Assembly: GCA_965223845.1 (NCBI GenBank) | Contig: CBDCXR010000004.1 | Location: forward strand, 6,223,857-6,287,856 | DNA length: 64,000 nt | Source: Planctomycetota bacterium | GTDB taxonomy: Bacteria; Planctomycetota; UBA8108; SXIK01 | Reading direction: 5' to 3' | Shown: positions 5,102-60,405 of the stretch, piece after piece | How positions within the stretch are numbered: position 1 is the stretch's first letter | Layout: every line of letters begins with the position of its first letter | Notes under the pieces: generated by a model | The model's input: the letters and a program-made list of their open reading frames with translations, nothing else | The model's database searches: none | Told to the model about the DNA's origin: nothing | Translations under genes and position numbers: made by a program

Positions 5102-5222
5102 CCGTCGACTCTCCCGGAGAGCGGGCCCGAGCGGTCGCGCGCTTCGAGGCCGCGAGTCTCGGCGGGTAGGGCCGAGGGAGTGGGGGCGGGAGCGGCGCCA
5201 CGCGTCTTCTCCCAATCGATGC

Positions 5223-6140
5223 GTGCTCGACGGGGCTCGAGACGGCGAACGTCTCGAGCTCCATCGACTCGCCTCCTCGTCTGCCGACTCTGGTTTCATT
5301 CCGCATCCGAAGGAAAAGGGCGTGAACCTCGCGCACCTCGTCAGAGCTCGCGTGCGACTCGACCTGCGCGAAGGCGACTTCGACTCCGCTCTCCGGCGAA
5401 CGCGGCAAATCCTCGAATTCGGGAGGCGCGTTGCAGGCTGCGAATCGTTCGGAGATTCAATCGTGAGCGTCATCGTGCAGATCTGGGGACTCGCCGAACT
5501 CCGTCGCGTCGTCGAGCAGGGAACGCTCGGTTCCGACGTGTGTCGGGAATTGGTCGGCGATCTCGAAGCCTACGAATTCGATCGCCGTCGAGTCGATCGT
5601 CTCTGGGCGGCGGGTTACCGCGACGCCGTTCAGACGCTAGAGGAAAGCCCATGGCTCGGAGATTCGCGGTTCTATCTCCGGAACCGAACTCTCCAGCGCG
5701 TGGTGACCATCTATCGCGCGGAGCGAGCGTGGATGAAGGAGACCCAATGGACGGCCCCGCCGTTCCCCGAAAGCCGGGAGGCGTTTGTGCCCCCGACGCC
5801 ATCGAATTGGTTCAACTCTGACGGCGAGCACGTTTACTTCACCGAGCTGGTGAGTGGCGGTTGGTGGGTCGACCCGTAGAAACTCGACTTCCAGGTCCGA
5901 GCGACTCGCCTCGTCCTCGCCATGCGAGTCTATAGACTCGAACACGAGGTGCTCCCCGAGACGCTCGACGTCCTCGTCCCGGACTTCATCGATCAGGTGC
6001 CGATCGATCCCTTCTCCGCCGAGAAGAAACCGCTCAATTACTCGCGAAAAAATCGCGAAATCTGGTCGGTGGGCGCCGAGGATCCTCTGCACGTCCACCG
6101 TCCGGAAGAACTGGTCGTGCGGATTCCGCCGTCCTGGTGA
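5223..6140 (+). CDS. Hypothetical protein whose frame is interrupted by one in-frame TAG (5877-5879) and continues for 87 more codons
   Basis: ORFs 5223..5879 and 5922..6140 share one frame with a single TAG between them. Both halves have non-repetitive, protein-like composition (W/Y/F present), and GC is higher at codon position 3 than position 1 in this frame. It is more likely coding than the antisense ORF 5637..6308. No domain was recognised. Confidence 0.35.
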
Positions 6141-6216
6141 AACGACGGCCGCCGGGATCGGGGTTGTCCCGTCCCGGCGGTCTTTTGGTCGGACGCGCTC
6201 GTTCGCAGATACTTCC

Positions 6217-8089: not shown

Positions 8090-8722
8090 TCAGCCTCGCT
8101 CGCTTGGCGTCTCCCCCGCGCCGCCGAGGGCGTCGTAAAGCCAAGCGCGCGCAAAGCTCCAGTCGCGCTTCACCGTCCGCGTCGACGATCCGAGCACCGC
8201 GGCGGTCTCCTCGACACTCAAGCCGGCGAAGTAGCGAAGCCGCACGGTTTCCGCGAGTCGCGCATCGAACTCTTGTAGGCGATCGATCGCGTCGACGAGT
8301 GAGAGCGTGTCGTCGGGGTCGCTCGCCGCGAGGTCGGCGACGTCGAGAAACTCCCGCGCGTTCCCGCCCCCGCGCTTCTCGCGAGACCGTCGCCGCGCGT
8401 ACTCGATGAGGATACGCCGCATCGCATCGGCCGCCGCGTGAAAGAATTGCGCACGCCCGGTCATCGGACGCGCGCTGAGATCTCCGACCAGACGAAAGTA
8501 CGCCTCGTGGACGAGGTCGTCCGCCTGGAGCGTGTGTCCCGCGCGCTCACGGGCGATCCGGCCGCGAGCGATCGAGCGCAGCTCGCCATAGACGACTTCG
8601 ATGAGCCGATCCCTCGAGTCGACATCTCCGGCGCTCACCGCCTCGAGAAGCGACGTCACCTCGTGGGGCGGCGGTGTCGCGGGATCGGGTTCACCTCGAC
8701 TCGGTCGTGGAGGCTCGCTCAC
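8090..8722 (-). CDS. ECF-type RNA polymerase sigma-70 factor of the subgroup usually paired with Ser/Thr kinases
   Basis: N-terminal [35 protein letters not shown]. The region-4 helix-turn-helix is [34 protein letters not shown]. It overlaps the upstream kinase gene by 32 nt. Confidence 0.85.
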
Positions 8723-11700
8723 GCTCGAATTCCTCGAACCGCTTCTTCCACGCTCGCTCCCGCTTCTCGTCTCCTGCGGCCTGGTAGAGCCGCACGAGTC
8801 GGTCGAGCGTCAGCCGCAGCGTCCGCTCGAGCGTACGCGGATCGTCTTTCATGTTGCGGTAGCTTTCGATGAGGAGCGTTCGCGCTTCCTTCAATCGACC
8901 TTGGCCGAGCAGGCTGTCACCGAGAGCGCTTTCGGCGGCCCAGATCTGAATCGCGTTCTCGTCCGCGTTTTGCCTCAAGTATCCTAGGCACTCCTGCAAG
9001 ATCTTTTCGGCCTTCACGTGCTTCTCGTTCCCGACGAGGACGAGTCCGTACATCAAGAGAGCCGACGCGTTCCGCGGCATCTGTTCGGGCCGCGCCGCCG
9101 CGCGGATGATTTCGACGACGCGCTCGATGTGCGGGAGCGCCGCCTCGAAGCGTGCTTCGGACTCGAGGCACGTCGCCATCGCCGCGTGGGCCCGCGCTAT
9201 TCCGGCGCGAGTCGTGCCGATCCGCTCCTGCAGGTCGAACAGCTCCTTGAGGACAGTCTCCGCGCGATCGCATTCACCCGTCCGAACGTAGGCTTCCCCG
9301 AGATTGAGGAGCACGACGAGAATCGAAGGGTTTTCCGCGCCAACGGCTTCCTTCAGATCATCGATCGTTTCCTCGAGGAGCGCCTTGGCCTCCTCCGCGC
9401 GTCCGAGCGCGGTGTAGTTCGCCGCGAGGTTGGTCATCGACTCGAGCGTCCGGGCGTGCTCGGGACCGAGAGTGCGTTTTCGGATTTCGAGTGCCTTGCC
9501 GCTCCACTCGGCGCCTTCGGAGTGGTTTCCCTCGTAAGTGAAGGTCACTCCGAGCGCCGCGTGAACCTCCGCCGTCTGGCTATGATCCGCTCCGTAGATT
9601 TTCTCGTAGGCAGCGAGCGCACGGCGGAGGTTGTCCTTCGCCTTCTCGTAGCGAGCTTGCTGGCTGTGAATGACGCCGACGTTCATTCTCGCCCGTGCGA
9701 CGGGAGGAAAGTCCCCGCCGTAGACCCGTGTGCCGATTTCAATCACCTCCTCGAAGAGCGCGATGGCTTCATCGTGGCGCTCGAGCAACGGAAGAACGGC
9801 CGCCAGATCGTGCATCCCCCGGAGCGTCTTCGCGTGCTCCGGTCCGAGAACGCGGCGGCAAGCGGCGAGAGTCTCGCGAGAGAGCTTCTCCGATTCATCA
9901 ATTCGCCCGCTGTAGTGGAGCGCTCGCGCGCGATCGAAGGAGGCGGTGAGAACCTTCGGATGCTCGGCGCCGAGTTCCTTTCGCAACCGCGGAATGACCT
10001 CCGATGTCACTTTCTCGGATGCGACGAATCGTCCCGCCGCGCCTAAGACGGCGCCGAGGGTCGCGATCGCGGAGAGTGTCACGTCGTGGTCTTCGCCGCC
10101 GAGAAGTGCGGCTAGATCGCGCGTCTCCATGAGGAGGGATTCGGCTTCCTTGAGTCGGCCAAGCCTCGCCGACACCTCCGCCAAGTGGACGGTCATGCGA
10201 AGCGTCGTGAGGTCATCTTCACCGAGAACTCTCTCGCAGACTGCGCGCAGATCTCGAAACGTGGACTCGGCGTCCCGGAACCGCGCCATCTCGGAATACG
10301 TCTCGCCGAGTCCTTCGCGCGCGAGGATGGTCGGCAGAGCGTCGTCGCCGAGGCGCGCCGAACGAACCTCGATCGAACGCTCGAAGCTCGCCTCGGCGAG
10401 TTTGAAGCGACCGAGACCGAGGTGCGCTCGACCGACCGTGTGGCGGAGCGTCGCCTCGATTTCCGGTTCGTCCCGGAGAGCGTCCCAAAGGTCGGCTCGC
10501 GTGTAGTCGTCGAGGAGTTGGCGGACGGTGTAGGTCGGCCCGCGCGCGGTTTCCGGGTCGGCGGCGTGAAACATCTCGTCGATGAGCCCGAAGACGCGAC
10601 GGGCGGTGTCGGCCTCGCGGCGCGCGATCTTCGCGCTCTCTTCGGCTTTCGCCTGGGCGATGCGTGCGTTTTCCTTCTCGGCGCGCTCGCGCCCCTCGGC
10701 CTCCTGTGCCGTTGTCGCTGCGGTTTGCGCGAGATCGCGTTCGTCGGCCGCGACGATGAAACCCCAAATCGCGAGCAGGAGGCCGGTGATGAGCGCCCCG
10801 GCAACGACGCCCGCTCCAGCGACCGCGACGCGATTTCGACGGATGAACTTCTTCACCCGATACGCCGTCGAGGGCGGTCCCGCCGCGACGGGTTCGTGTT
10901 CGAGAAACCGTCCGATGTCGAGCGCGAAGGCCGCGGCGCTCTCGTACCGGCGCGACCGGTCCTTCTCGAGCGCCTTCATGATGATCCAGTCGAGATCGCC
11001 GCGGAGTAGTCGTCCGAGCTCGCGGGCGTCGACTTGGCGCGAACCGGCGACCACCGTTCGGCTCTCGTCGTCCATCGAACTCACCCGCGTCGACGGCTTC
11101 GGCGGCGTTTCCTCGCGAATGACTCGCTGGACCTCCTTGTAGCCTCGCTCGAAGAGTTCCTTCGTGTCGAACGGAGTCGTGCCCGTGAGCAACTCGTAGA
11201 GGAGGACTCCGAGCGAATAGATGTCGCTCCGCGTATCGATGTCGAGACTCGACATCTCGGCTTGCTCGGGACTCATGTACGCGGGCGTGCCGACCATCGC
11301 GTGAAAGCGCGTGAAGAAGGTCTTTTCGGTGAGCTTCTGGTGCGTCGCCTTCGCGATGCCGAAATCGATGATTTTCGGCACGGCGCGGCCGTCGTTGACC
11401 GTGACAAGGACGTTCGACGGCTTGAGATCGCGGTGGATGATCCCTTTTTGGTGCGCGTGCTGAACCGCGTCGCAGACCGGGATGAACAGCTCGAGACGCT
11501 CCCGCGGAGAGAGGTTGTTCGCGTCGCAATATTCAGAGATCGCCACGCCACGGACGAGCTCCATCACGAAGTAGGGACGACCCTCGCGCGTCGAACCCGC
11601 GTCGAGCACCCGGGCGATGTTGGGATGCTCCATCATCGCGAGCGCTTGTCGCTCGGCCTCGAACCGAGCGATCACCTCGCGCGTGTCCATGCCGAGCTTG

Positions 11701-12134
11701 ATCACCTTGACGGCGACGCGCCGGCGCACGGGCGCTTCTTGCTCGGCCATCCACACCGACCCGAATCCGCCTTCGCCGAGCTTCTGAAGAAGCTTGTAGG
11801 GGCCGATGCGAGAACTACGGGACGGATCGAAATCCGCCGACGCTTCGATCTCGCCCCCCGTCGAATCCGGCTCGGGCGCGACCGTTCCCCGCTCGACCGG
11901 AAGGGTGGGACCCGCGTCCGCTGCGGCGGCGACTCGCTGAGGTGTCTCCGAGGCGTCCGTCGCGAGAAATGAATCGGCGGCCGCGTGTGCAGCGAGGAGG
12001 CGTTCGATCTGCGCTTTGATCGCGTCGTCGTCTCCGCAAGCTTCGGCGAGAAACGATGCGCGCTTCTCTTCGGGAAGCCGTACGGCGTTCTCGAAGATCC
12101 GCTGCAACCGACTGCGCCCGTCGCGATCCGCCAT
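8691..12134 (-). CDS. Ser/Thr protein kinase with a transmembrane segment, coiled coil and a long TPR-repeat domain
   Basis: Kinase motifs: [14 protein letters not shown] (glycine loop), [37 protein letters not shown] helix ([28 protein letters not shown]) is followed by ~600 aa of TPR-like repeats. Confidence 0.9.
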
Positions 12135-12351
12135 CTCCGTCGTCCAAGTCCGGGTGATTCACGAGCTGTGTCTCGAGCCGATCATCGTAACCGGTTTGGG
12201 CGGAGGAGTCCGCCGTGCGGGATTTCCTCCGCATGCCGGGTCCGGTTGACTTGGTCGACGTTGGCCTACCGTTGGTCGTGCGTTCGGCGCAGGCGCGTAG
12301 TATGACTAAGATGCTCGACCCTGCGGACCTGGGGAGGCAGACGAGACCGAA

Positions 12352-15042
12352 ATGTACAAATGGCGCCAACGAATCGCGGCCGCGATCCTCGCCCTTCCGG
12401 CGTGCACGTTCGTTGGTTTTCTCGTGTACCGCCACGTCCGCGAACGCGTCGAGCTCGCGCGCGTTGTGAACGGCGATCGGGCGCGGAGTGAGGCTGCTGC
12501 GGCTTGGCTCGCGGAGACCAAGATTCCGGGTGCAGTCGAGGCTTTGCTCGCGCGAGGGAAGGCGGATATCGAGCGCACGATTTCCGAGCTGGGTCTCGGA
12601 GACCAGCCCTGGACGGGGCCGGATCTCGCGCCAGCCTACATTAACCGCGCGCTCGATTCGCTCCTCTGGCCTCCCTACGACCCTCTGGTTGCTGAGCTTC
12701 TCGCTGACTCGGAGCCTCGGGTCCGTGCGTGGGCGGCGAAAGTGCTCGGACGTCAGTCCTCGCGAAGTGAGGGCGCGCTGGTAGCGCTCGCTCGTGCGAC
12801 TCGAGACGAAGATTTCGAGACAGCTCGCTGGGCTAGCGAGGCGCTTCTCCGCGAGGGTCGGCGCGCCGCGAAGTTCCTCGTGGACGCGATCCCTATCGAG
12901 GACGCCCCAGTCACGGCACGGGACAACTTGACATGGGAGGAGTTCCTCGATCGAAGCTGGACTTATAAAGCGATTGTTCGATTGGGACCGAACGCCAAAG
13001 CGGTTCGCCATCGATTCCGCGAACGCATCGAGAGAATCGAGTCACGACTTACCGACACCGACCGCCGCGCGCACCGATCGCGCTACCTGGCGACGGGGTT
13101 TCACGCTCTCCTGATCCCCCTCAGCGACGAGATGGAGGCGGAGTTTATACGTCCATTGGAACGATCGCTCGCGCCCACGCCGACGCTCGGCGGCGGCAGA
13201 GGTCGACCGGAAACCGCGCGCTTCATCTCTCGTTTGCTAGACGCAATGGCCATGGCCTCGCAGGCCGTAGGTGAGACCCTGGACGCGCGCGTCTTCCGAC
13301 GAATTGCGCTCGGCCTCGAGGAGCGGCGGTCACGGATACCGATCGAGGAGCGTCACTTGGCTGTGAAACTGGAACCATTGAGAGACTCGGATCGGGAACG
13401 CCGAGTCGAAAGTTTCCTCTTCGCCCTCGATCGACTCGGCCCGAGGGCGGAATCCGCGATTCCGCGTGTCGTGAAGCTCGCGGATTCCGCCGCCGATTCG
13501 TGGTTCATTTTCCGAGAGGTTTTGAGGCCCGGGGCAAACGTATCGCGACCAGAGATTAGCGCCGCGGTCGCCGTTCCCCTCTTGCTCGAGTCCGGACTCG
13601 ATCGATTGGTGTCTCTGCAACAGCTTTCCCGGTATCCCGAGTACGCGTCCGAAATCGTGCCGGCGATCGAGCAGGACTTGATGGCCGATTCGCGCGAGAT
13701 TCGCTGCGAAGCGGCGCGCACATTGCGGGCGATGGGTGAGCTCGGAAGACGAACGACGGACGCCACGATCGCACGGTTCGGAAAGGAGAACCGCGTTTGG
13801 CTCGCTGAGGTGCTGTCGTATCTCGACCCAACCGATCCCCGAATGGCGGAGTACGTCGTTTCCGAACTCTCGCGGCCATCGGGCGAGCCTCGTCTAGAGA
13901 TTCTCCGACGAGTGGGCGCGGTCGAGTCGGCGATCGAAACTGTGCGTCCGAAGCTTCGGGCATGGCTCGGCCATGGGGATTCCGCCGTACGGCTGTGGGC
14001 CGCGGCCGCATTCTGCCTCCAGGATCCGGATACGACCGAGGCGATGCGAGCGCTCGAGGCTGCGTGCACAGATCAGGCGCTGGTGACGGAAGACCGCGAA
14101 ACACCGGAGCTGTTTCGGACGCTCGAGGAGTGCGGAGAACGAGGACTCGACGTCCTCGCGAGATTGTTCGAGAGTAGCCCGAAACGCCTGCATGAGGCTG
14201 CGTTCGAGAGTCTCCACCGAATGAATCCCGGCGAAGAGTCTCTTCCCGTACTCCGGCGGATGCTCGGCAACAGGAGCACGGAACTGCTTGCCGTCGCGCT
14301 CCACTTGACGGGGAAACTGGGCGTGAAGGCTCGGTCTCTACGCTCCACCGTCGAGGAGTTGACCGAGCATTCCCTCGTCGAGCTTCGAGAGCTCGCGTTC
14401 AGCACGCTCGGCAAGATCGCGCCGAACGCGGTGCTCCCCCGGCCGGCCGACCTCGAGCCGATCGAAAAACTCCTCGCGGCGCTGGAGACCGGCACCCCCA
14501 GTGAACGGCGCGACGCGCTGCTCACGCTCGCGTGGAACGACCAAGATGATCCGCGAACGCTCGACGCTCTTCTCGCCGGAATTCGCGATCCGTCCCTCGC
14601 GTACTCGTCATCGCGAGGACTCGTCGGGTTGGGCGCTCGATCGGTGGACGGGTTGATGCCACTTCTCGAGCACCCGTCCGAGGAGACGCGATCATGGGTG
14701 GCGTACACTCTCGGGCGAATCGGCATCGAAGCGAGCGCGTCGATTCCCGCGCTCGTTCGAGCTGCGCGGGACGAAGATTGGGTGACTCGCGCGAATGCGA
14801 TTCAGGCGCTCGGGCGCGTGGGTCGCGGGGACGAACGCGCCCGTGACGCTGTTCTCCGAGGATTGCTCGATCTCGAAGGAGACCTTCGCTGGTACGCGAT
14901 AGAGGCGAAGGCTCGGCTCCAATCTGACGAACCGATCCCAAGAGACGAGACCGACTGGCTCGATATCTTTAGTCGTTTCTATCCCTACTACGGTTCCCGG
15001 CGCGGGCGGTGCGACCACCGTACGTTTTGTACACGTGGATGA
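12352..15042 (+). CDS. Membrane-anchored HEAT/PBS-lyase-like repeat protein
   Basis: N-terminal TM segment (IAAAILALPACTFVGFLVY). Many HEAT-like repeats: PRVRAWAAKVLGR, SAVRLWAAAAFCL, EETRSWVAYTLGRIG, DWVTRANAIQALGRVG. It is transcribed divergently from the kinase gene. Confidence 0.6.
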   Translation: MYKWRQRIAAAILALPACTFVGFLVYRHVRERVELARVVNGDRARSEAAAAWLAETKIPGAVEALLARGKADIERTISELGLGDQPWTGPDLAPAYINRALDSLLWPPYDPLVAELLADSEPRVRAWAAKVLGRQSSRSEGALVALARATRDEDFETARWASEALLREGRRAAKFLVDAIPIEDAPVTARDNLTWEEFLDRSWTYKAIVRLGPNAKAVRHRFRERIERIESRLTDTDRRAHRSRYLATGFHALLIPLSDEMEAEFIRPLERSLAPTPTLGGGRGRPETARFISRLLDAMAMASQAVGETLDARVFRRIALGLEERRSRIPIEERHLAVKLEPLRDSDRERRVESFLFALDRLGPRAESAIPRVVKLADSAADSWFIFREVLRPGANVSRPEISAAVAVPLLLESGLDRLVSLQQLSRYPEYASEIVPAIEQDLMADSREIRCEAARTLRAMGELGRRTTDATIARFGKENRVWLAEVLSYLDPTDPRMAEYVVSELSRPSGEPRLEILRRVGAVESAIETVRPKLRAWLGHGDSAVRLWAAAAFCLQDPDTTEAMRALEAACTDQALVTEDRETPELFRTLEECGERGLDVLARLFESSPKRLHEAAFESLHRMNPGEESLPVLRRMLGNRSTELLAVALHLTGKLGVKARSLRSTVEELTEHSLVELRELAFSTLGKIAPNAVLPRPADLEPIEKLLAALETGTPSERRDALLTLAWNDQDDPRTLDALLAGIRDPSLAYSSSRGLVGLGARSVDGLMPLLEHPSEETRSWVAYTLGRIGIEASASIPALVRAARDEDWVTRANAIQALGRVGRGDERARDAVLRGLLDLEGDLRWYAIEAKARLQSDEPIPRDETDWLDIFSRFYPYYGSRRGRCDHRTFCTRG

Positions 15043-15107
15043 TGCGGCGACGACGGACGACCCAAACTCGCGGTCGGTAAGCGTCTGGGAGTCGGGCTGC
15101 CCCTCGT

Positions 15108-15704
15108 TTGAGGTCGTGGCGCGACTCACTCCCGAAGAAAGAAGGGCTTGGCGTGTTCGAGCGGCTGTTCCGGAGGCGGCCTTGGAGTCTCGTCGATCCC
15201 GATTGGGATCTGGAGATCGTCGAGTTTGCGATGGAGATGGAGGAGACGTTTGAGATCTCAATTCCAGACGAGCAGGCCGAGAGGATCCGCACGATCGGGG
15301 ACTTGAAAACGTATTTGACTGCGAACTGCTGGTCGCAGCCCGCGAGTTCCTGCGCGACTCAGGCTGCGTTCTGCCGCTTGAGATCTCGAGCCTGCAGTGT
15401 GCTCGGAGTGTCGAAGACCGCCGTGGTTCCACGGACGCGATGGCTCGTGCTCCTGCCTCCCGACGACACGTTTCGCCTCTGGTCGCAGATCGCTCGCGAA
15501 GCCGGAGTTCCGCCTCCGACCGTAAGGGACCCACGTCGAGGGCGCGACGGGTTGCCGCTGAATCGAACCACCGTTGGCGAGGTTGCGAAATTGCTCGCCG
15601 CGCTGGCCCCGCGGGTAGATGACATCTCAGCGCGGATAGATCGACTGGTAATGAACTTTTTCGACGTGACGGATTTTACGGACGAAGTGGGCTGGTGCGG
15701 CTGA
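15108..15704 (+). CDS. Hypothetical protein whose N-terminal region resembles an acyl-carrier-protein helix II-III but lacks the phosphopantetheine Ser
   Basis: LVDPDWDLEIVEFAMEMEETFEISIPDEQAERIRTIGDLKTYL aligns with ACP ...[33 protein letters not shown]..., with Asp in the Ser position. The C-terminal half is unrecognised. The start was not refined. Confidence 0.35.
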   Translation: MRSWRDSLPKKEGLGVFERLFRRRPWSLVDPDWDLEIVEFAMEMEETFEISIPDEQAERIRTIGDLKTYLTANCWSQPASSCATQAAFCRLRSRACSVLGVSKTAVVPRTRWLVLLPPDDTFRLWSQIAREAGVPPPTVRDPRRGRDGLPLNRTTVGEVAKLLAALAPRVDDISARIDRLVMNFFDVTDFTDEVGWCG

Positions 15705-15870
15705 GAGTTGAGCGTCGCGAGTCTCTTCTCTCGCGATCTCGCGCGTCCTCTGTGATGCGCGCTTCGTTCGCGGTTTCGCGCGGTCACGCGTCAGCTTTGG
15801 ATGCCCGGGCCACGATCCATTCGCGCGCCGAGCGTCGCGTCAACGCCGACGCTCGGCGCGTTCCAAGAAG

Positions 15871-16704
15871 CTACGGAGCGTGAACGTTCCAAGCCGGTGG
15901 CCACGGATCCGTGAGGGCGCCGTCCACGATATCGACCATCGCGACGGTCGGCGGAAGTGCTCCGAGATCGTTGTCCCCCGGGAGCGGCGGGAACGTGATC
16001 GCGGCCGACGGAACGCCGGGAGGAAGTTGCACCTTGAGAAGAAGGCGCGGCGCGAGGCCGAGGCTCGCCGCGGTACGCGACGGATGATTGTCCGACCAGA
16101 TCGATTTCTGAACGTTTAGCTCCGTCGGCGGGATGTACAGCACGAATCCTTCGTACGGCTCCGCGATTTCCGTCGTGATGTCTCGGGTACCGCACCAAGC
16201 CTGACTGCGGTACTTGATCGCGAAATCGCTGCCCCCCTGCGCGTGCGTCGAAGTCGGATCGCCCGTCAACGTGCACGGATTCCACGGGTCCGTGAGACGC
16301 TTCACGTGGACGTCGATGTCGTCGCTCGTCCCATCTCCCCGCGACGCGGGATTGAAGACGTTGAGACGCGCTTCCAAGATCTGCGAACCGGCCGGCAGAT
16401 TCGGCAGCACGAAATCGATGTAAGCGCAGCGAAGGGTGGACGGATTGACGACCCAACCGAAGTTGAGCTCGATGTCGCAGCCGTGCGTTCCAACGCCCGT
16501 TCCCGCGACCGTTTCAGCCCACGTGTCCTTGTAATCGGCCACCCAGAGAAACACGACACCGGTTCCGGATCCGCTGATGGTCCCCGTCAGGGCGACGCTT
16601 TGACAGCAGACGCGACATCCGGACGCGCTAAGCGCGAACAGGACCGTGACCGCGAGAGCGGGCGCGACGAGACGACGCGCGCGCTTTCGATGAGAGAACC
16701 GCAT
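15871..16704 (-). CDS. Secreted hypothetical protein
   Basis: Start set at MRFSHRKRARRLVAPALAVTVLFALSASGC (signal peptide). The mature part is Gly/Thr/Pro-rich with several Cys. No domain recognised. Confidence 0.45.
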   Translation of the reverse strand: MRFSHRKRARRLVAPALAVTVLFALSASGCRVCCQSVALTGTISGSGTGVVFLWVADYKDTWAETVAGTGVGTHGCDIELNFGWVVNPSTLRCAYIDFVLPNLPAGSQILEARLNVFNPASRGDGTSDDIDVHVKRLTDPWNPCTLTGDPTSTHAQGGSDFAIKYRSQAWCGTRDITTEIAEPYEGFVLYIPPTELNVQKSIWSDNHPSRTAASLGLAPRLLLKVQLPPGVPSAAITFPPLPGDNDLGALPPTVAMVDIVDGALTDPWPPAWNVHAP

Positions 16705-45641: not shown

Positions 45642-46886
45642 ATGAACATTCGTGCGAACTCCCGCGAAGCGAACGGAATGCGCGCGGCGGCCGTCGTCAG
45701 CACTGAAGCGGACACGCTCGCCGCCGGAGTCGAGGTTGCGAGTGCGATCCGTGCGGCCTTCCCTTCCGCGCCGATCGATCTCGCCTGCCTCTTCATCACG
45801 CCTCAGCATGCGCGTCGTCTCGAGGAGGTCGTCGCCGCGATTCACCGCGATGTCGCTCCCCGCCACCTCATCGGCTGCACCGCCGAGAGCGTCGTCGCCG
45901 GCGAGCGGGAGTTCGAGCAGTGCGCGGCGATCTCTCTCTGGGCCGCGAGTTTTCCGCCGGGTGCCGTCGTCGAGACCGCGCACGTTCGTGCGGAGGAGAC
46001 GCCGGACGGCCTCGCGTTCGTCGGCCTTCCGAGCTTGGACCCTCCCGACCGGTCGGCGCTCCTCCTCTTCGGCGAGCCGTTTTCGTTTCGCATCGATGAA
46101 TGGCTCCGGCGCTTCGGGGAAGACCACGCCGGCGTGCCCGTCTTCGGCGGGATGGCCAGCGGATCGCGGCGACCCGGCGAGAACCGCCTCTTCCTCGGCG
46201 GTCGAGTGGCCGTCCACGGTGCCGTCGTCGCCAAGCTCGGAGGAACCGTGTCGGTGCGAGGGGTGGTCTCGCAAGGTTGCCGCCCGTTCGGCGAAAAGTT
46301 CGTCGTCACACGCGCGGACGGATCCCTCGTCTTCGAGATCGGAGGCGTCCCGGCGCTCGAGCGGCTGAAGGAGCAAGCCTCGCGCCTCTCGCCGACGGAG
46401 CTCGACCGACTGAGCGGCGGCGTTCACCTCGGCATCGCGATCGACCCGAGAAAGTCGCGGCCGACGCGGGGCGACTTCCTCGTCCGCAACATCGTCGGCT
46501 GGGATGACGAGCGAGGCCTCATCGCGGTAGCGGACGCCGTGCGGCCGGGAGCGACCGTTCAGTTTCACTTGCGCGACGCCGAGGCGGCATCCGAAGATCT
46601 CGCCGATCTCCTCGACGTCGCCTCGACGGGTGGCGACCCCGTCGGGGGCCTGCTCTTCAGCTGCAACGGTCGCGGATCCCGGCTCTTCGACGCCCCGGAT
46701 CACGATGCCGGTCATGTGAGCCGGCGCTTCGATGCGCTCCCGCTCGGCGGTTTTTTCGCGGCGGGCGAGCTCGGTCCGATCGCGGGGCGGAACTTTCTTC
46801 ATGGCTTTACGGCGAGTGCGGCGCTCTTCGAGCCGTTGGTCGCGCCGACGTCATCGCCGAAACCCCCCGGAACTTCGAACGAATGA
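45642..46886 (+). CDS. FIST (N- and C-domain) sensory protein
   Basis: Two-part architecture ending ...GGFFAAGELGPIAGRNFLHGFTAS, typical of the FIST_C domain. Its stop overlaps the next start as ATGA. Confidence 0.55.
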   Translation: MNIRANSREANGMRAAAVVSTEADTLAAGVEVASAIRAAFPSAPIDLACLFITPQHARRLEEVVAAIHRDVAPRHLIGCTAESVVAGEREFEQCAAISLWAASFPPGAVVETAHVRAEETPDGLAFVGLPSLDPPDRSALLLFGEPFSFRIDEWLRRFGEDHAGVPVFGGMASGSRRPGENRLFLGGRVAVHGAVVAKLGGTVSVRGVVSQGCRPFGEKFVVTRADGSLVFEIGGVPALERLKEQASRLSPTELDRLSGGVHLGIAIDPRKSRPTRGDFLVRNIVGWDDERGLIAVADAVRPGATVQFHLRDAEAASEDLADLLDVASTGGDPVGGLLFSCNGRGSRLFDAPDHDAGHVSRRFDALPLGGFFAAGELGPIAGRNFLHGFTASAALFEPLVAPTSSPKPPGTSNE

Positions 46887-48064
46887 ATCACCTCGAACCA
46901 CGCGGTCGGCTTCTTCTCGGGCCCGGACCGTCCTCCGTTCACCCGCGAGTCTCCGAAGCGCTCGCCAAGCCGCTCGTCGGGCACCTCGACCCGCAGTTTC
47001 TCGCGATCATGAACGAGACGCAGGCGCTGCTTCGCCAGACGTTTCGGACCGAAAATCGGCTGACGATTTCGGTCTCCGGGACGGGAAGCGCCGGCATGGA
47101 GGCTGCCTTCGTCAATCTCGTCGAGCCGGGGGACACCGTGCTCGTCTGCGTCAACGGCGTTTTCGGAAACCGGATGAGCGACATCGTCGAGCGGATCGGC
47201 GGTCGGCTCGAACGGATCGATCGTCCGTGGGGTGAGGTGTTCGATCCCGCCGAGGTCGAGAGCGCGCTCGAACGAAATCCGTCGATTAGCGTAGTTGCTA
47301 TCGTCCACGCAGAAACCTCTACGGGTGCACATCAACCCCTCGAAGCCATCGCGACTCTCTGTCGCGAGCGCGGCGTGCTCCTTCTCGTCGACGCGGTGAC
47401 GTCGCTCGGAGGAGAAGAGCTCGACATCGACGGGTGGGGGATCGACGTCTGTTACAGTGGCACGCAGAAGTGCCTCAGTTGTCCGCCGGGGCTGGCGCCC
47501 GTGACGTTCGGGCCGCGCGCCGAGGAGAAGCTCGCGGCGCGGAAGTCGAAGGTCGTGAGCTGGTATCTCGACTTGACGATGATCCAGAAGTACTGGACGG
47601 ACGGCGAGCGCGTCTACCACCACACCGCACCGATCGCGATGAACTACGGGCTCCACGCGGCGCTTCAGCTCGTCGCGGAGGAAGGGCTCGACGCGCGGAT
47701 CGCTCGACATCGCCGCAATAGCGCCGCTCTCCTGAGCGGGCTCACCGCGCTCGGTTTTCGCATGTTCGCGGCGGAGGGATATCGGCTGCCGATGCTGAAT
47801 TCGGTTTGGCTCCCCGAGGGCGTCGAGGATGCGCCTACGCGAAAGCGGCTTCTCGAGACGCACAATATCGAGGTCGGCGCCGGCCTCGGGGATCTCGCCG
47901 GGAAGATCTGGCGCATCGGGCTCATGGGTGAGTCGAGCCGGCGCGAACACGTGCTTCGATTCCTCGCTGCGCTCGAGAGCGAGCTCTACGAGGCGGGGCA
48001 CTCGGACCGAGTGGGCGCGGGGATCGAGGCGGCGGTGGCGTCGTATCGTAGCGCCGGGAATTGA
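46883..48064 (+). CDS. Class V aminotransferase (alanine-glyoxylate / serine-pyruvate aminotransferase family)
   Basis: LLLGPGPSSVHPRV, SGTGSAGMEAA, and the PLP region ...DVCYSGTQKCLSCPPGLAPVTF with the Lys in SGTQK. Confidence 0.9.
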   Translation: MNHLEPRGRLLLGPGPSSVHPRVSEALAKPLVGHLDPQFLAIMNETQALLRQTFRTENRLTISVSGTGSAGMEAAFVNLVEPGDTVLVCVNGVFGNRMSDIVERIGGRLERIDRPWGEVFDPAEVESALERNPSISVVAIVHAETSTGAHQPLEAIATLCRERGVLLLVDAVTSLGGEELDIDGWGIDVCYSGTQKCLSCPPGLAPVTFGPRAEEKLAARKSKVVSWYLDLTMIQKYWTDGERVYHHTAPIAMNYGLHAALQLVAEEGLDARIARHRRNSAALLSGLTALGFRMFAAEGYRLPMLNSVWLPEGVEDAPTRKRLLETHNIEVGAGLGDLAGKIWRIGLMGESSRREHVLRFLAALESELYEAGHSDRVGAGIEAAVASYRSAGN

Positions 48065-48191: not shown

Positions 48192-48917
48192 ATGACGACG
48201 ATCGAGACGAGACCCGCGCGGTGGCTCACCGCGGCCCTCGCGATCGCGCTCGCCGCTCCCGCGGCGTGGGCGGGCGACGAGAAGGAGGGTAAGGCGAAGG
48301 GAAAAGACAAAACGAAGACCGCCGCGACCGTCCACGGCTTCAAAGTGAAGACGATCGACGGGAAGAAGTTCGATCTGCGGACGCTCAAGGGTCGCGTCCT
48401 CATGCTCGTCAACGTCGCGAGCCGGTGAGGCCTCACGGACAAGCAGTACTCGAGTCTCGAGTCGCTCCACCGCAAGTACAAAGATCGTGGCCTCGATGTC
48501 CTCGCCTTCCCCGCCAACAACTTCGGCGGGCAGGAGCCGGGAACGAACCTCCAGATCAGGGAGTTCTGCGCGAAGAAGAACGTTTCCTTCCGTCTCTTCG
48601 AGAAGATCTCCGTGAAGGGCGAGGACGCGCATCCGCTCTATAGGTTCATCACCAACGAGAAGATGCACCCGAAGACGGGCGGCGACGTGAGGTGGAACTT
48701 TCAAAAGTTCCTCGTCGGTGCGGACGGTAAGGTCCTCGCTCGCTTCGAGCCGCGTGAAGATCCCCTCGGCGAGAAAGTGCTCGCGAAGCTCGAGGACGCG
48801 CTGAAGAGCGTTCCGGAAGAGAAGCGCCCGGCCGACAGCGTTAAGCCCAAGAAAGCCGAGGGAAAGGACAAGAAGAAGGCGGAGAAGGAGAAGACGGCCG
48901 GCGGGAAGAAGGACTAG
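48192..48917 (+). CDS. Secreted glutathione peroxidase with an in-frame TGA at the catalytic Cys/Sec position: a probable selenoprotein
   Basis: Start MTTIETRPARWLTAALAIALAAPAAWA (signal peptide, AAGGA RBS). One frame is open from 48192 to 48917 apart from a single TGA at 48426-48428. The residues around it, LMLVNVASR-[TGA]-GLTDKQYSSLESLHRKYKDRGLDVLAFPANNFGGQEPG...FCAKKNVSFRLFEKISVKGEDAHPLYRFI, match GPx NVAS(K/R)(C/U)G(L/F)T. The C-terminal tail is Lys-rich. Confidence 0.75.
48429..48480 (+). ncRNA. Candidate bacterial SECIS-like stem-loops just downstream of the in-frame UGA
   Basis: The palindrome GUGAGGCCUCAC overlaps the UGA. 17-30 nt further on is the hairpin ACUCGAG-UC-UCGAGU. It is unknown which, if either, functions as a SECIS. 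Confidence 0.3.
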
Positions 48918-49003
48918 ACCGAGGGAGATCGGTCCCGGGGGCGAGCGGTGCTGCGAAGGCACGGTTCGCCCCCGGTTTTTCGTTCAAGAGTGGAGCCGGA
49001 TCG

Positions 49004-49480: not shown

Positions 49481-49817
49481 CGACCGACTCGACGCGAGAG
49501 CGTTGTCTCGAATTCGTGCATCCGGGCGACATGACGTGTCGGCTGCCTGGCGTCCGGCGAGACGCCGCCGCGACCTAAATCGCGGCGAGCGCACCGTTAT
49601 CGACACTCGAGTCCCGCCGTGCCGATTCTCCGGGACCGTCCGAGTTCTACCCGACGCGCCCTGGGGAACTTACGTCGACCGCGCGGGTGCCTTCAGGTCG
49701 GTTGGCAGCATCGCGTCGGCGATGGAACACTTGACGGGGAAACGTGATCGAGTGGTCGATTCGTTTGCGCGAGCACTCTCGTCGCGCGGGGTAGGCATCG
49801 AATTGAGGACCGCGATC

Positions 49818-50492
49818 ATGAACCGAATCCGTTTTCGTCTCGAGCGCGAGAGGGGCTTCACGCTGATCGAGACCACTATCGTGTTCGGCGTCTCCATCGT
49901 GTTCCTCGCCGGGGTCGTCACCGCGTTCTCTGGCCTTCAGGGCGCGGTGGTCGAAGGCCAGACAATCTCGGAGCTTCAGCTTCGCTCCCAGCGCGCGCTC
50001 GATCGGATCGTGACGGCGGCGAGCCAAGCGCTGACGACCGACAGCGAGTTCTCGGCGCTCAAGCCGAACACCGGAGTCGACTCCCACTGCTTGCGATTCC
50101 GGCTTCTCGACTCCGTCGATCCGCTGACCGGCGCCCTCGTCTTCAACGGCGACAACGTCTACATCTACGGCCCCGACAGCGGCGCGAACCCCTCGGCCGG
50201 CCTCGTGATGGGCCGCGGCACGAGCCTCGCAAACGTCCACGGAAACGGGAGCGGGTCGGACGGCGTTCTCGGAACGAGGGACGACAACACCGGAGCGATG
50301 ACGAACGGTGTCCCGGTCGTCGAACTCCTCATCCCCGATACGTTCGCACCGCAGACGGGGACGATGTTCGAGGTCGACGTGAACGGGCGCCTGCTCACGT
50401 TCACGCTTCGTGTGAACGCCCAAGACGCGAACGGGCAGTTCATTCTCCCCCAAGATCTCGTCTTTACCGAGCGCGTCGCGCTTCGACGCTAA
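49818..50492 (+). CDS. Type II secretion / type IV pilin-like pseudopilin with a prepilin N-terminal cleavage/methylation domain
   Basis: Start MNRIRFRLERERGFTLIETTIVFGVSIVFLAGVV: G-F-T-L-I-E with Glu at +5 and a hydrophobic helix. GAGGA RBS. Confidence 0.65.
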   Translation: MNRIRFRLERERGFTLIETTIVFGVSIVFLAGVVTAFSGLQGAVVEGQTISELQLRSQRALDRIVTAASQALTTDSEFSALKPNTGVDSHCLRFRLLDSVDPLTGALVFNGDNVYIYGPDSGANPSAGLVMGRGTSLANVHGNGSGSDGVLGTRDDNTGAMTNGVPVVELLIPDTFAPQTGTMFEVDVNGRLLTFTLRVNAQDANGQFILPQDLVFTERVALRR

Positions 50493-50522
50493 ACGTAGGT
50501 TCATCGTCGCGGAGGCAATTCT

Positions 50523-51050
50523 GTGAGCACCAGCCCGTTCCGAGCACGATTCGACTCCACGACCGGCCTCACTCTGGTCGAGGTGACGGTCGCGATCACC
50601 GTGTTCGTCGTTACGGCGCTCGGGGTCGGAGCCGCGCTTACGGACGGGATCCAGCACCGGCAGCAGTCGTTTCAGATCTACCAGGGGCTGAACGTTCTCC
50701 GCGACATCGTCGCCGAGGTGCAAAACACCGCGAACCTTCCGCAGAACCTCGTCGCCCAGGAGGGCATCGGTGCGATCTACGACGTCTATCAAGGTCAGAC
50801 GCGCGCCGTGCCGAATCTGCCCAACGCTCAGGTCGTCATCACCTGCTTTCCGAGCGAAGCTTCCGTTCCACTCGAGCTCGGCGGTCCGCAGGATCTCAAC
50901 TTCGATGGCGACGCCGTCGACGACCTCGGCAACATCTCGAACGGAAGTGATCTCAAGATCGTCCCGATGATGTTCACGCTCACGATGGGCACGGGAAAGA
51001 CGAGCCAGACGATCACGTTTCACCGATTGATTACGAAGACGACCGATTGA
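50523..51050 (+). CDS. Pseudopilin (prepilin-type N-terminal domain)
   Basis: GTG start. ...FDSTTGLTLVEVTVAITVFVVTALGV: G-L-T-L-V-E with Glu at +5. Confidence 0.6.
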   Translation: MSTSPFRARFDSTTGLTLVEVTVAITVFVVTALGVGAALTDGIQHRQQSFQIYQGLNVLRDIVAEVQNTANLPQNLVAQEGIGAIYDVYQGQTRAVPNLPNAQVVITCFPSEASVPLELGGPQDLNFDGDAVDDLGNISNGSDLKIVPMMFTLTMGTGKTSQTITFHRLITKTTD

Positions 51051-51081
51051 CGAATCGAAGCGAGAGAGAGGGGGCCATCCG

Positions 51082-52536
51082 ATGATCAAGTTCCACCCGA
51101 TGGCGCGGGGGGCGAAGAGCGACCGACCGACTCGTCTCGGCCCGTTCGACTCCGACCTCCGACAGCGCGGCGCAGCTCTTCTCGTGGCCGTGGTGTTCGG
51201 GATCGGACTCCTGTCCATCGCCGCGCTCACGCTCCAGCTCTCGCTCGCGCACGCCGCGACGGGCAAGGGGCAGCGTGAGCTCTTCTTCGCCCGGCAGATC
51301 GCCGATTCCGGGGCGGCGCAGGCGCTCGCTCTGATGAAGGAAGGCGGGGCGGTTGCCCCGACTTCGGGCGGCTGGGTGTCGTTCTCGATCGGCGACTTTC
51401 TCTACGACACCTCGACGGATCCCGCGACGCGGATGAGCGTCGTCCGCGCGTGGGGACGAGTCGCGGTCGAGGCGTCGACGAGCTCGAGCACGGTCGCACC
51501 GGACGATCCGAGCTGGGATGGAACGGGATGGCTCGTGCGCGGCGTCGAGGTTACGGTCCAGGGCGTCGCGTTCATCCCGGAGTCGGCCGTGTACTTCGGG
51601 AACGGCGGCGTCGAGCGACCCCAGAACGGATTCGAGTGGACCGGAGGGTCCGACCTCACCGATCCGTCGACCTGGGGTACGGTGACGAGCTCGCCCTCGT
51701 CGTGGCAGGCGGCTTCGGTTCCCTTCGAAGCGAGTGCGCTCGATCACCCGATCGACTACCTGACGACTCTCGCCGCGCCGCCGCCGGCCACGTCGAATCC
51801 GCACCCGTATCAAGTGTGGTCGTCGCAGACGACGATCGGCCAGGCGAACACCGAGGCCTGGTTCAATTCCTCGGCCGGAGGTGGCTCGGCAATGTCGGGA
51901 GTCGCGCCTTCGACCGCGTACTACTCGAGCGATCCGACGTCGCCCGATTACGCGTTCCCCGTCGACTCGTCCGTACCGGACGTTCAGGATTTCGGCTGGA
52001 CGCTCTGGAACGAGAACTCGACGAATCCGAGTGCGACCATGCTATCGAGTGGAAGCCACAGCGGCACCTTCGGCGATTTGACGAGTCCGGGCGTGACCTT
52101 CGTCACCGGCGAGCTCGATGTCGCCTCGGGTACGACGTTCGAGGGCGCGGGGATCCTCGTCATCCGCGACGACTACGATCCGAACGTCGATACGAACAAC
52201 ACGCCGTCGGACCGCGCCCTCATGACGATCTCCGGGACGTTCAAGTGGACGGGGCTCGTCATCATCGCGGGGTGGGCGCCGAACATCACCGTCAACCCGG
52301 GCGGCGACGCGACGATCGTCGGGTCTCTCTTCGGCGAAGACAGCGTGCAGTCCGGAGGCGAGATCAGCCTCGACAGCGCCACGATCATTTTCCGCGTCGA
52401 AGATTCGATGAAAGTCCTCTACTCGAACGCACTCTTTGCGCCGGGAGGACCGATCAACCAGTTTCTTCCCGCGGTGACGAAGCAGATCCGCGGCGTCCGC
52501 GAAATCACGTCCACGTCGTTCGCGAGCACGTATTGA
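51082..52536 (+). CDS. PilX-N-like minor pilin / pilus assembly protein (large, 484 aa)
   Basis: RQRGAALLVAVVFGIGLLSIAALTLQ resembles the PilX N-terminal domain. The remainder is Ser/Thr/Gly-rich and beta-type. The start may be the downstream MARGAK. Confidence 0.5.
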   Translation: MIKFHPMARGAKSDRPTRLGPFDSDLRQRGAALLVAVVFGIGLLSIAALTLQLSLAHAATGKGQRELFFARQIADSGAAQALALMKEGGAVAPTSGGWVSFSIGDFLYDTSTDPATRMSVVRAWGRVAVEASTSSSTVAPDDPSWDGTGWLVRGVEVTVQGVAFIPESAVYFGNGGVERPQNGFEWTGGSDLTDPSTWGTVTSSPSSWQAASVPFEASALDHPIDYLTTLAAPPPATSNPHPYQVWSSQTTIGQANTEAWFNSSAGGGSAMSGVAPSTAYYSSDPTSPDYAFPVDSSVPDVQDFGWTLWNENSTNPSATMLSSGSHSGTFGDLTSPGVTFVTGELDVASGTTFEGAGILVIRDDYDPNVDTNNTPSDRALMTISGTFKWTGLVIIAGWAPNITVNPGGDATIVGSLFGEDSVQSGGEISLDSATIIFRVEDSMKVLYSNALFAPGGPINQFLPAVTKQIRGVREITSTSFASTY

Positions 52537-58370: not shown

Positions 58371-60405
58371 CGTCGCGGTGCGAGTGCTCGTCGCCCGGCT
58401 TCGCGGGCGACGAGGACGTGGAGCCAGCGTCCCGCGGGGCGTGCGTGCTTCTCTTCACCCCGCAGCGAAGCATCGCCGCGCCGAAGTACGGATTGCGCAC
58501 GGTCTCGTCGCTTTGGAGCCAAAGCGCGCCGCGATTCTTGAACGCCATCGGACAGTGCACCTCGTGAACGGGCGCCGTCGATTCGTGGCCGTACCGCGCG
58601 ATTGCGCGCTGAAGCTCGAGCGAGAGCGACTCGAACGCGCTCCGCTGAACTACGATCGAATCGGCACGCGCGAGGCGTTCCGACGCGCGCGCGAGCGCTT
58701 GCCGCGCAGCCGCCCACTGCGCATCGGCGCTCTCTTCGCCTTCCCGGCGGGGCGGAAGCGCGGCCGCCGCTTTCGTCGCCGCCGCGCGGGCGCCTTCGGA
58801 TTTGTCGGACGCCAGCGCATCGCCGATTTCACGGTAGAGATCGTAGAACGCGGTCAGCTCGCGGCGGATCTCTGGATCGTCCGCGGTCGGAGCGGGCGGT
58901 GGCGACGTGTCCGCGCCGCCGGCGGGGTCTCCGCTCGCGCGCTCCTCCGCGTGTGAATGTCCGTGGAGATGGCCTCCGCCTCCCGGCCCGCCGCCCTCGG
59001 GCTGCATCATGCTCGGCTTCGCTTCGATCTGAAGGGCGCTGTCGATCTTGAATCCTCCGCGAACGACCACCTCCTCGCCTTCGTCGAGTCCGCGCGTGAC
59101 GACGTAGTGCTCTCCCGCGCGCGGCCCGAGAACGACGCTACGCCCTTCGAAGATCGACGTGTCGGGCCTTCGCACATAGACGACCGCGCGCCGGCCGGTG
59201 ATGAGCGGCGCTGAGGCGGGAATGACGAGCGGCGGCGTCTCGCTCGTAGCGCCGACGCGAAAGAGCTTCTCCGACGGCACGAGGTCCATGCCGCAGATAT
59301 CGCAGGAGCCGGGTCCGTCCTTCACGATCTCGGGATGCATCGGGCTGATCCACTTCCCGGCGAGCGCGGGATCCATCACGCGACCGCCCGCGGCGAGCGT
59401 CGATCGCGCCTGGGCGCGGACGAACATCCCCGGCTTCAGTCGATGGTCGGCGTTGTCGACGTTCAGCCGGACCTTTACCGTGCGCGTGTTCGGGTCGACC
59501 ACCCAATCTTCAAACGTCACTCGGCCGTGAAACGTCTCGCCCGGATAGGCCGGAGTTTCGAACGTGACGTCCTGACCGTAGCGGAGCCAAGGGAGATCCG
59601 ACTCGTAGGCATCGAGCTTCACCCAGAGGCGAGTGAGATCGGCGACCTTGTAGATCGGCGTACCCGTGGAGACGTAGTCGCCTTCGCTCGCGAGTTTCTC
59701 GACGACGACACCCTCGACGGGAGACGGAATCATGAGGTGCTGGCTCGGCGTGCGCCGCCGCTCGATCTCCGCGATCTGCTCCTCGGCGAGCCCGAGGAGG
59801 GCGAGCTTCGTTCGCACCGCATCGAGGTTGCCCGAGGGAAAGCGGCTCGAGAGACTCTCGTTCGTGGGCTCGGTTCGCTCGACGGCGTTCAGCGCCTCGA
59901 CGAGCTGCTGCTGCGCCGCGTAGAGCTTCGGACTGTAGATGTCGACGAGGTGGTCGCCGACGGCGACCGGGACCCCGGTGTAGTTGACGAACAGCCGGTC
60001 GAGCCGGCCGTCGACCCACGCGGTGATCGTCTTCACTTCGGTCTCGTCGAATTCGATCTTCCCCACCATCGCGATCGTCGCCTCGACGAACTTCCGCTCG
60101 ACGGGTCGCGTCTCGACTTCGGCGAGGCGCATCGCGGCTTCGGAGAGCTCGAGCGCTCGCGGGCCCGGGTCGTCCGCACGCTCGGCGAGAGGGATCAGAT
60201 CCATTTCGCAGATCGAGCACTTCCCTTCGTAGGGAAGCGTGATGTGAGGATGCATCGAACAGTAGTACGTCGTCGCGCCGCCCGCGGACGGTTCGCTCGA
60301 CGGGTCGCGATCGGCCTCGTCGCGCGAGAGCGTCCCGGCCCAGTACGAGAGGCCGGCAACCACCGCGAGCACGATGGCGAACAGGGCGATGGCTCGGAGG
60401 TTCAT
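58354..60405 (-). CDS. cusB: Efflux RND periplasmic adaptor (CusB-like) with duplicated N-terminal metal-binding motifs, a His/Gly-rich stretch and a C-terminal DUF3347-like domain
   Basis: Start MNLRAIALFAIVLAVVAG after AGGGAGGAA. YYCSMHPHI..CSICEMDL and ISPMHPEIV..CDICGMDL are heavy-metal-binding motifs. GGGPGGGGHLHGHSH. The C-terminal HCPMAFKNRGALWLQ...NPYFGAAMLRCG matches DUF3347. The track's 1063-aa ORF extends spuriously upstream into cusC. Confidence 0.8.
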   Translation of the reverse strand: MNLRAIALFAIVLAVVAGLSYWAGTLSRDEADRDPSSEPSAGGATTYYCSMHPHITLPYEGKCSICEMDLIPLAERADDPGPRALELSEAAMRLAEVETRPVERKFVEATIAMVGKIEFDETEVKTITAWVDGRLDRLFVNYTGVPVAVGDHLVDIYSPKLYAAQQQLVEALNAVERTEPTNESLSSRFPSGNLDAVRTKLALLGLAEEQIAEIERRRTPSQHLMIPSPVEGVVVEKLASEGDYVSTGTPIYKVADLTRLWVKLDAYESDLPWLRYGQDVTFETPAYPGETFHGRVTFEDWVVDPNTRTVKVRLNVDNADHRLKPGMFVRAQARSTLAAGGRVMDPALAGKWISPMHPEIVKDGPGSCDICGMDLVPSEKLFRVGATSETPPLVIPASAPLITGRRAVVYVRRPDTSIFEGRSVVLGPRAGEHYVVTRGLDEGEEVVVRGGFKIDSALQIEAKPSMMQPEGGGPGGGGHLHGHSHAEERASGDPAGGADTSPPPAPTADDPEIRRELTAFYDLYREIGDALASDKSEGARAAATKAAAALPPRREGEESADAQWAAARQALARASERLARADSIVVQRSAFESLSLELQRAIARYGHESTAPVHEVHCPMAFKNRGALWLQSDETVRNPYFGAAMLRCGVKRSTHAPRDAGSTSSSPAKPGDEHSHRDGDRNE

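Follow-up and report, generated by a model that had tools for sequence, protein, structure and literature searches.

A 2005 study reported glutathione peroxidases (GPx) among the bacterial selenoprotein families, characterized by a UxxT motif and a selenocysteine insertion sequence (SECIS) of the bacterial type (PMC1088965), and a 2026 review counts a GPX-like protein (PF00255, UxxT) among the high-confidence predicted prokaryotic selenoproteins (PMC13188914). No GPx stands among the planctomycete selenoprotein candidates of PMC4807772 (Table S9). Here, we describe a GPx gene from a 64,000-nucleotide stretch of a Planctomycetota genome (assembly GCA_965223845.1, contig CBDCXR010000004.1, positions 6,223,857 to 6,287,856; hereafter, the window), in which an in-frame TGA occupies the codon of the catalytic residue. 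An earlier note on this DNA had taken it for a probable selenocysteine (Sec)-containing GPx and had called such enzymes uncommon in bacteria, which is fair, although the two papers cited above had already established the family. Our own estimate is a probability of about 0.87 that the gene encodes a genuine exported Sec-GPx and contains a functional SECIS within its coding region. The TGA is conserved in 22 other genomes, the sequence downstream of it is under selection, the catalytic and resolving residues are conserved, and a conserved and covarying hairpin that is associated with the UGA codon follows it.

In every feature that can be tested here, the window gene agrees with the known bacterial Sec-GPx family. 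Like the GPX-like selenoproteins from the Sargasso Sea and WP_010957027.1, its product belongs to PF00255 and has the Sec position in a U-x-x-T motif (here U-G-L-T), and directly 3' of the UGA lies the candidate SECIS, whose small apical loop contains a G (a likeness drawn from the published description); in both cases, Cys homologues are far more numerous than Sec forms (PMC1088965; PMC13188914). It differs from them in belonging to a planctomycete clade with the motif FPANNF instead of FPCNQF, in its predicted signal peptide, and in Lys-rich termini that are found in one branch. Mammalian GPX4 has a eukaryotic SECIS in the 3' untranslated region, uses glutathione as the reductant, and lacks a resolving Cys. 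The window protein resembles it as a short GPx of the monomer type, with a nearly identical VNVAS-x-U-G-x-T segment, a peroxidatic Sec, and the same spacing of the catalytic tetrad (Sec, Gln at +35, and W-N-F), but its Cys126 occupies the resolving position, its SECIS candidate is within the coding region, and it has a putative export signal. It is probably a monomeric GPX4-like thiol peroxidase of the GPx family with Sec at position 79. In poplar GPX5 (2p5q) and yeast Gpx3/HYR1 (3cmi), as implied for the window protein, an intramolecular bond forms and is then reduced by thioredoxin, and both the peroxidatic position and the resolving Cys of the poplar enzyme align with ours. However, those enzymes are Cys based and intracellular, whereas here the intermediate would be a selenenylsulfide and the reductant extracytoplasmic. 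BtuE of Escherichia coli (NF007900), a member of the same family, uses Cys, while the window protein has a probable Sec, a predicted signal peptide, and basic tails.

What is particular to this case is the combination of the FPANNF subclade, a regular SECIS pattern embedded in the peptide YSSLES, the predicted export signal, the basic tails, and a Cys orthologue with a probable fossil SECIS. None of this changes the current understanding of selenoprotein biology, and it would hold no surprise for selenoprotein specialists.

The catalytic UGA codon and its conservation

Translation of the forward strand gave exactly one internal stop, so that, as the earlier note had read it, a single frame of 241 codons is open to position 48917 except for the TGA at 48426-48428. 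The 162 codons 3' of the TGA contain no additional stops or frameshifts and have a G+C content at third codon positions (GC3) of 0.85. When Cys was placed at the TGA, the predicted product matched the Pfam family GSHPx (PF00255) with an E value of 1.7e-35 and 121.3 bits (cutoff, 27), spanning positions 2 to 107 of the 108 in the profile. Among solved structures, the best match was poplar GPX5 (E=7e-44), followed by many GPX4 chains (E ~1e-40). Membership of the predicted protein in the GPx family is, from these profile and chain matches, unambiguous, and an identity of ~45% to solved GPx chains suggests a thioredoxin-type GPx fold. The match to the BtuE-type NCBIfam model NF007900 had an E value of 1.9e-44, but its 151 bits fall short of the equivalog cutoff of 270 bits.

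In an alignment with 18 Cys homologues (alignment A1), the TGA falls in the column of the invariant catalytic Cys of NVAS-x-C-G-x-T, which places it at the catalytic residue, where the earlier note had put it. The catalytic tetrad is complete (U79, Q114, W168, and N169), with U79 in the Cys column and the other three residues invariant. Sec79 and Gln114 are 35 residues apart, as are Sec46 and Gln81 of GPX4. The predicted resolving residue, Cys126, ~47 residues past the peroxidatic site, aligns over a one-residue gap with Cys92 of poplar GPX5, the resolving Cys of that thioredoxin-dependent enzyme. Throughout the subfamily, in Sec and Cys forms alike, FPANNF (window positions 48510-48527) replaces the canonical FPCNQF in alignment A1. 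Relative to FPCNQF, the Cys and first Gln are missing; the catalytic Gln in GGQEPG is kept, and the variation leaves the catalytic tetrad untouched.

A search of 5.8 billion predicted proteins gave, among the best 120 full-length matches, top identities of 67 to 68% and no read-through Sec form; the 18 that were aligned and 111 that were parsed by motif all had Cys. Sec relatives are invisible in protein databases because gene callers stop at the TGA, and we therefore scanned DNA directly, using a 42-nucleotide (nt) degenerate pattern encoding VNVAS-x-[TGA]-G-x-T-x-x-QY against 185,579 species-representative genomes. The scan recovered 22 loci in 22 other genomes, compared to ~0.14 expected by chance under uniform base composition. 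All but one of these loci come from planctomycete-type metagenome-assembled genomes (MAGs): 19 are titled Planctomycetota, Planctomycetia, or Phycisphaerae, and two are titled "uncultured bacterium" but have a GPx near-identical to those; the remaining one (L017) belongs to a Cryomorphaceae MAG. Past the TGA, the frame runs into conserved GPx sequence in 22/22 loci and reaches full length in 19 (two end at the edge of the fetched stretch, and one ends at a run of N). One of them, L006, comes from a complete Planctomycetota chromosome of 9.18 Mb and is an orthologue in a syntenic setting, sharing with the window the order M28-PDZ peptidase, DAGK, FIST, class-V aminotransferase (72% identity), and TGA-GPx; this assigns the window to a related planctomycete, and the same TGA has thus been seen in independent assemblies. 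When the region 3' of the TGA was compared between the window and 16 relatives, pN was 0.25 to 0.32 and pS 0.49 to 0.72, with dN/dS values of 0.17 to 0.46, indicating purifying selection and, therefore, translation of this region while the TGA was present.

The gene could be a pseudogene, that is, a Cys-GPx in which a recent nonsense mutation converted TGC or TGT to TGA and the downstream frame has not yet decayed. From TGC, a single base change is enough, both of the relatives closest in protein distance have Cys (L103, with TGC, and L104, with TGT), and the Sec machinery is not demonstrated for the genome of the window. However, the same TGA is found in the 22 other genomes, including the syntenic L006, the 162 downstream codons are undamaged with a GC3 of 0.85, dN/dS is well under 1, and the hairpin described below is intact in the window yet absent from 79 of 80 Cys genes; we consider a pseudogene very improbable. 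An error of sequencing or assembly over a real TGC or TGT would also take a single wrong base, but this base would have to strike the one codon that is TGA in 22 independent assemblies, in a gene that has the Sec-specific hairpin and the YSSLES peptide, which makes this explanation extremely improbable. Reassignment of UGA as a sense codon was ruled out, as TGA ends 17 of the 23 Pfam-supported genes in the window. UGA is therefore an ordinary stop here, and its read-through must depend on a local signal.

The Cryomorphaceae gene (L017, positions 2082-2741 on the reverse strand of JBLGAR010000031.1) is a second, unrelated type of TGA-GPx, with the canonical FPCNQF and without a signal peptide. 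A separate hairpin, GUACGC-GGGCCU-GCGUAC, follows its UGA in a shifted register and at a nearly equal distance. From this locus, a predicted Sec-GPx with a similarly placed candidate SECIS exists in Bacteroidota too. No other convincing TGA-interrupted gene was found in the window or in the loci of the relatives. The recurrent 'LE*LE' matches of that search were the antisense strand of the GPx hairpin, and a weak candidate in the window (5636-5022, reverse strand) has no redox motif.

A hairpin associated with the UGA codon

The core of the hairpin, ACUCGA-GUC-UCGAGU (48448-48462), begins 22 nt past the U of UGA, and the G of its apical loop is 28 nt past that U. G48446 and C48463 may form a closing pair, with U48447 bulged (Table 1). 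The second hairpin of the earlier note, located ~20 nt downstream, is thus present and conserved, although with a 6-bp stem and a GUC loop and not with the 7-bp stem and UC loop drawn at the time. The SECIS of E. coli fdhF is a coding-region hairpin just past the UGA, with a GGUC apical loop and a bulged U. The window hairpin is likewise within the coding sequence after the UGA, with a small G-U loop (GUC or GUU) and a U that may be bulged 5' of and below the stem, but its loop G is a few nucleotides farther from the UGA and its loop is shorter (3 versus 4 nt).

All planctomycete TGA genes have the hairpin in an identical register, with a consensus of ACUC-N-R-GUY-U-N-GAGU, and the loop begins with GU in all aligned sequences. 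Within the 20-sequence alignment, 94% of the cells of the stem are paired, compared to 16 to 49% when the partner is slid by one to three columns. At stem pair 39-45, 11 sequences have G-C, eight have C-G, and the outlier L017 has the sole mismatch. On both sides, this pair occupies synonymous third codon positions (Ser UCG/UCC and Leu CUC/CUG/UUG), and the adjoining pair is either A-U or G-U (Ser AGU or Gly GGU).

To compare Sec and Cys genes, the sequences were anchored on the invariant QY. Of 21 TGA genes, 18 had all 6 bp of the stem and a GU loop, compared to none of 78 Cys genes from a metagenome scan; with the two closest Cys relatives added, it appeared in one of 80 Cys genes (Fisher p = 6.5e-16, or 1e-11 once near-identical Sec sequences were collapsed). 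The hairpin is thus closely tied to TGA, as opposed to TGC or TGT. Among genes encoding Y-S-x-L-E, the synonymous pair was matched in 20/20 Sec genes and mismatched in 5 of 12 Cys genes. The hairpin encodes Y-S-S-L-E-S in the window and Y-S-[S/G]-L-E-S in 15 of the 17 listed Sec forms, the exceptions being L016 (YSSLEP) and L017 (YAGLRT). This peptide is limited to Sec forms and a single Cys gene, and the segment is free to vary in the other Cys forms, which indicates that the RNA structure constrains the protein sequence. With these observations and the 22 further TGA genomes, the probable Sec-GPx of the earlier note is now considerably better supported.

The stop-proximal palindrome GUGAGGCCUCAC, noted previously as a possible element, is where it had been placed but found no comparative support. 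It showed no covariation, and its sole free site (the third position of Leu) becomes unpaired in 5 of 20 sequences. We rejected it as a recoding signal and judge it a by-product of encoding U-G-L-T.

Sec and Cys forms and the selenocysteine machinery

The closest Cys relative by protein distance (L103, ENA ERZ27271284 k119_1232665, positions 1-1112; protein P0002) has a catalytic TGC. It keeps the complete Sec-type hairpin ACTCGAGTCTCGAGT together with the YSSLES peptide, being the sole hairpin-bearing Cys gene of the 80, and it shares with the window a downstream neighbor with a JAB domain. This hairpin is likely a fossil SECIS left after a recent change from Sec to Cys. L104, the next closest relative, has lost the hairpin. 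A rough neighbor-joining (NJ) tree (160 columns, no bootstrap) resolved the planctomycete Sec forms into four groups that were interleaved with Cys forms in one subclade (57 of 218 sequences). The presence of the hairpin in the same register in all Sec groups suggests that Sec is ancestral here and was repeatedly replaced by Cys; alternatively, the Sec form may have been transferred horizontally.

Several observations weigh against a functional Sec-GPx. The folding energy of the region after the UGA is unremarkable (z = +0.49 for 65 nt and z = -1.3 for 26 nt); support for the candidate hairpin is comparative, not thermodynamic. Moreover, the covariation rests on one stem pair, because the encoded amino acids fix four of the six pairs. 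Rfam returned no families at gathering thresholds, and at E values of up to 10, the recoding region had only a chance 7.8-bit match to a snoRNA family on the opposite strand; RNAalifold on a 78-nt alignment gave an unconvincing alternative structure (-4.45 kcal/mol). The Cys orthologue L103 has the hairpin, which alone is hence no proof of ongoing Sec insertion. As for the machinery, selA, selB, and selD were not found among the ~30 open reading frames (ORFs) scanned in the 64-kb window, ARAGORN detected no tRNA, and so no tRNA-Sec, in the window or in loci L001-L022, and the 8-kb loci of the relatives contained no sel genes. Complete sets of selA, selB, selC, and selD are described for Gemmata obscuriglobus, Isosphaera pallida, and two Porphyra-associated strains (PMC4807772, Table S8), and the Sec trait is therefore known in the phylum.

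The gene could also be in a fossil state, with the Sec machinery lost or unexpressed and the UGA either suppressed by near-cognate tRNAs (inserting Cys or Trp) or mostly terminating, on its way to a Cys replacement of the L103 kind. The interleaving of Sec and Cys forms in the rough tree, the hairpin of L103 that outlived its TGA, and the frequent loss of Sec among bacteria (PMC1794560) all favor it. However, a catalytic UGA without SelB would be strongly deleterious, and either fixation of Cys or decay of the gene would be expected, whereas in the window the TGA is retained, the hairpin is perfect, and the ORF is intact, and the syntenic L006 is in the same state. We find this explanation quite improbable and retain that of a working Sec-GPx.

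In such a working enzyme, SelB carrying Sec-tRNA(Sec) would be recruited by ACUCGA-GUC-UCGAGU and decode UGA-79, and the predicted signal peptide would direct the product through the secretory (Sec) translocon to the planctomycete periplasm. Sec79 would there reduce a hydroperoxide, helped by Gln114, Trp168, and Asn169, and Cys126 would convert the resulting selenenic acid to a selenenylsulfide, which a thioredoxin-fold partner, rather than glutathione, would reduce. The Lys-rich N-terminal linker and C-terminal tail, probably disordered, may hold the enzyme at anionic envelope surfaces.

For annotation, the main consequence is that standard gene callers split or truncate the window gene at its TGA, and the clade, together with its regular SECIS pattern, would allow correct annotation across Planctomycetota MAGs. 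Biologically, an exported selenoenzyme would be added to the planctomycete envelope redox toolkit, and the close Sec and Cys orthologues, including the hairpin-retaining Cys form, suit the study of Sec/Cys exchange.

Predicted export signal, basic termini, and gene neighborhood

By inspection, the N-terminus has a basic n-region (R7 and R10), LTAALAIALAAPAA as its hydrophobic core, and A-W-A preceding the predicted cleavage site, with neither a twin-arginine motif nor a lipobox Cys. Equivalent hydrophobic N-termini were present in the Cys homologues and in every 5'-complete planctomycete Sec homologue, but not in the Cryomorphaceae protein. The signal-peptide start of the earlier note is consistent with this, and export of the window GPx is likely.

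Lys-rich segments follow the predicted signal peptide and close the protein (Table 1). Linkers similarly rich in K, E, and D were found in L002 and L014 and in proteins P0003, P0006, and P0008. The tail, which had been described as unusual, is indeed Lys-rich (11 K+R of 28 residues) but not unique: compositionally similar tails recur in L002, L014, and L019, a short KKKG/KKKS tail is present in the L003 group, and the Cys homologues P0005 and P0006 have Lys-rich tails as well, while the Phycisphaerae-type Sec-GPx lack them. Conservation of composition without conservation of sequence suggests that the termini are disordered basic appendages. As a matter of speculation, the tails could tether the enzyme electrostatically to anionic surfaces of the envelope. 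A broader proposal is that the protein is an envelope analogue of GPX4, a Lys-tethered periplasmic Sec 2-Cys peroxidase that repairs lipid hydroperoxides and is recycled by an extracytoplasmic thioredoxin-like partner, in a subclade that records repeated Sec-to-Cys swaps with fossil SECIS elements. Taken as a whole, we regard this proposal as unlikely, albeit worth stating; if true, it would provide natural pairs of Sec and Cys orthologues for asking why selenium is kept.

Table 1. Features of the probable Sec-GPx gene and its immediate surroundings in the window
Feature	Position	Strand	Remarks
Shine-Dalgarno-like purine-rich stretch GGAAAGGAA	48179-48187	+	4 nt 5' of ATG; read off the sequence
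Sec-GPx coding sequence, complete (putative)	48192-48917	+	241 codons including UGA-79; terminal TAG 48915-48917
Predicted Sec-type (secretory) signal peptide, aa 1-27	48192-48272	+	By inspection; MTTIETRPARWLTAALAIALAAPAAWA/GD
Lys-rich low-complexity linker GDEKEGKAKGKDKTKTAA	48273-48326	+	Directly after predicted signal peptide
Stop-proximal palindrome GUGAGGCCUCAC	48425-48436	+	Judged a coding by-product
Probable selenocysteine codon UGA-79 (peroxidatic residue)	48426-48428	+	Aligns with invariant catalytic Cys; TGA in 22 other genomes
Bacterial-type SECIS candidate	48446-48463	+	6-bp stem 48448-48453/48457-48462, GUC loop 48454-48456
Gln114 codon, catalytic-tetrad Gln	48531-48533	+	Q114 invariant in alignment A1; aligned to GPX4-derived chains
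Cys126 codon TGC, predicted resolving Cys of 2-Cys GPx	48567-48569	+	F125-C126 invariant
Trp168-Asn169 codons, catalytic tetrad, WNF motif	48693-48698	+	W168, N169, and F170 invariant in alignment A1
Lys-rich C-terminal tail, aa 214-241, ADSVKPKKAEGKDKKKAEKEKTAGGKKD	48831-48914	+	11 K+R, 6 D+E of 28
Intrinsic terminator	48935-48980	+	Long G+C-rich hairpin 48935-48975, then UUUUU 48976-48980

The gene is followed by an intrinsic terminator that a simple consensus scan missed, probably owing to its internal loop, and that folding detected (-47.1 kcal/mol for 48915-48990, z = -6.4, equalled by 0/200 shuffles). Gene neighbors of the GPx were heterogeneous between relatives. Neither a sel gene nor a conserved redox partner was found beside it in the window or among 20 flanking ORFs of 11 relatives' loci, and no thioredoxin, DsbD, or CcdA gene adjoins it in the window or in those 11 loci; judging from this context, the predicted Sec-GPx is a stand-alone gene.

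Directly 5' of the Sec-GPx is a class-V aminotransferase (46883-48064, forward strand), whose start overlaps the stop of the FIST gene (ATGA). The adjacency of aminotransferase and GPx is common only to the window and its close relative L006. We considered this gene as a selenocysteine lyase or cysteine desulfurase and rejected it, since NCBIfam assigned it to AGXT/PhnW/BhcA-type transaminases (E ~1e-62 to 1e-66), with 18 bits only for SclA. In the L003 group, a gene for a cysteine-desulfurase-like protein (L003 2957-4393, reverse strand) lies ~1.7 kb 3' of the Sec-GPx on the opposite strand. Its product matched TIGR01976 with 475 bits (cutoff, 352) and, in part, the Sec lyase SclA; the gene is not conserved in other Sec-GPx loci, which leaves any connection with selenium metabolism unproven.

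Downstream of the JAB-domain gene, the window has three consecutive ORFs (329, 175, and 484 aa; 49503-52536, forward strand) with no Pfam or NCBIfam match. Four segments (4111-6217, 12158-13894, 14337-15871, and 58454-60402) contained no ORFs passing a simple coding filter. Large Ser/Thr protein kinase and TPR proteins are encoded at 8691-12158 (reverse strand) and also beside the Sec-GPx in L008 (2928-5828, forward strand), probably as nothing other than a common planctomycete gene type.

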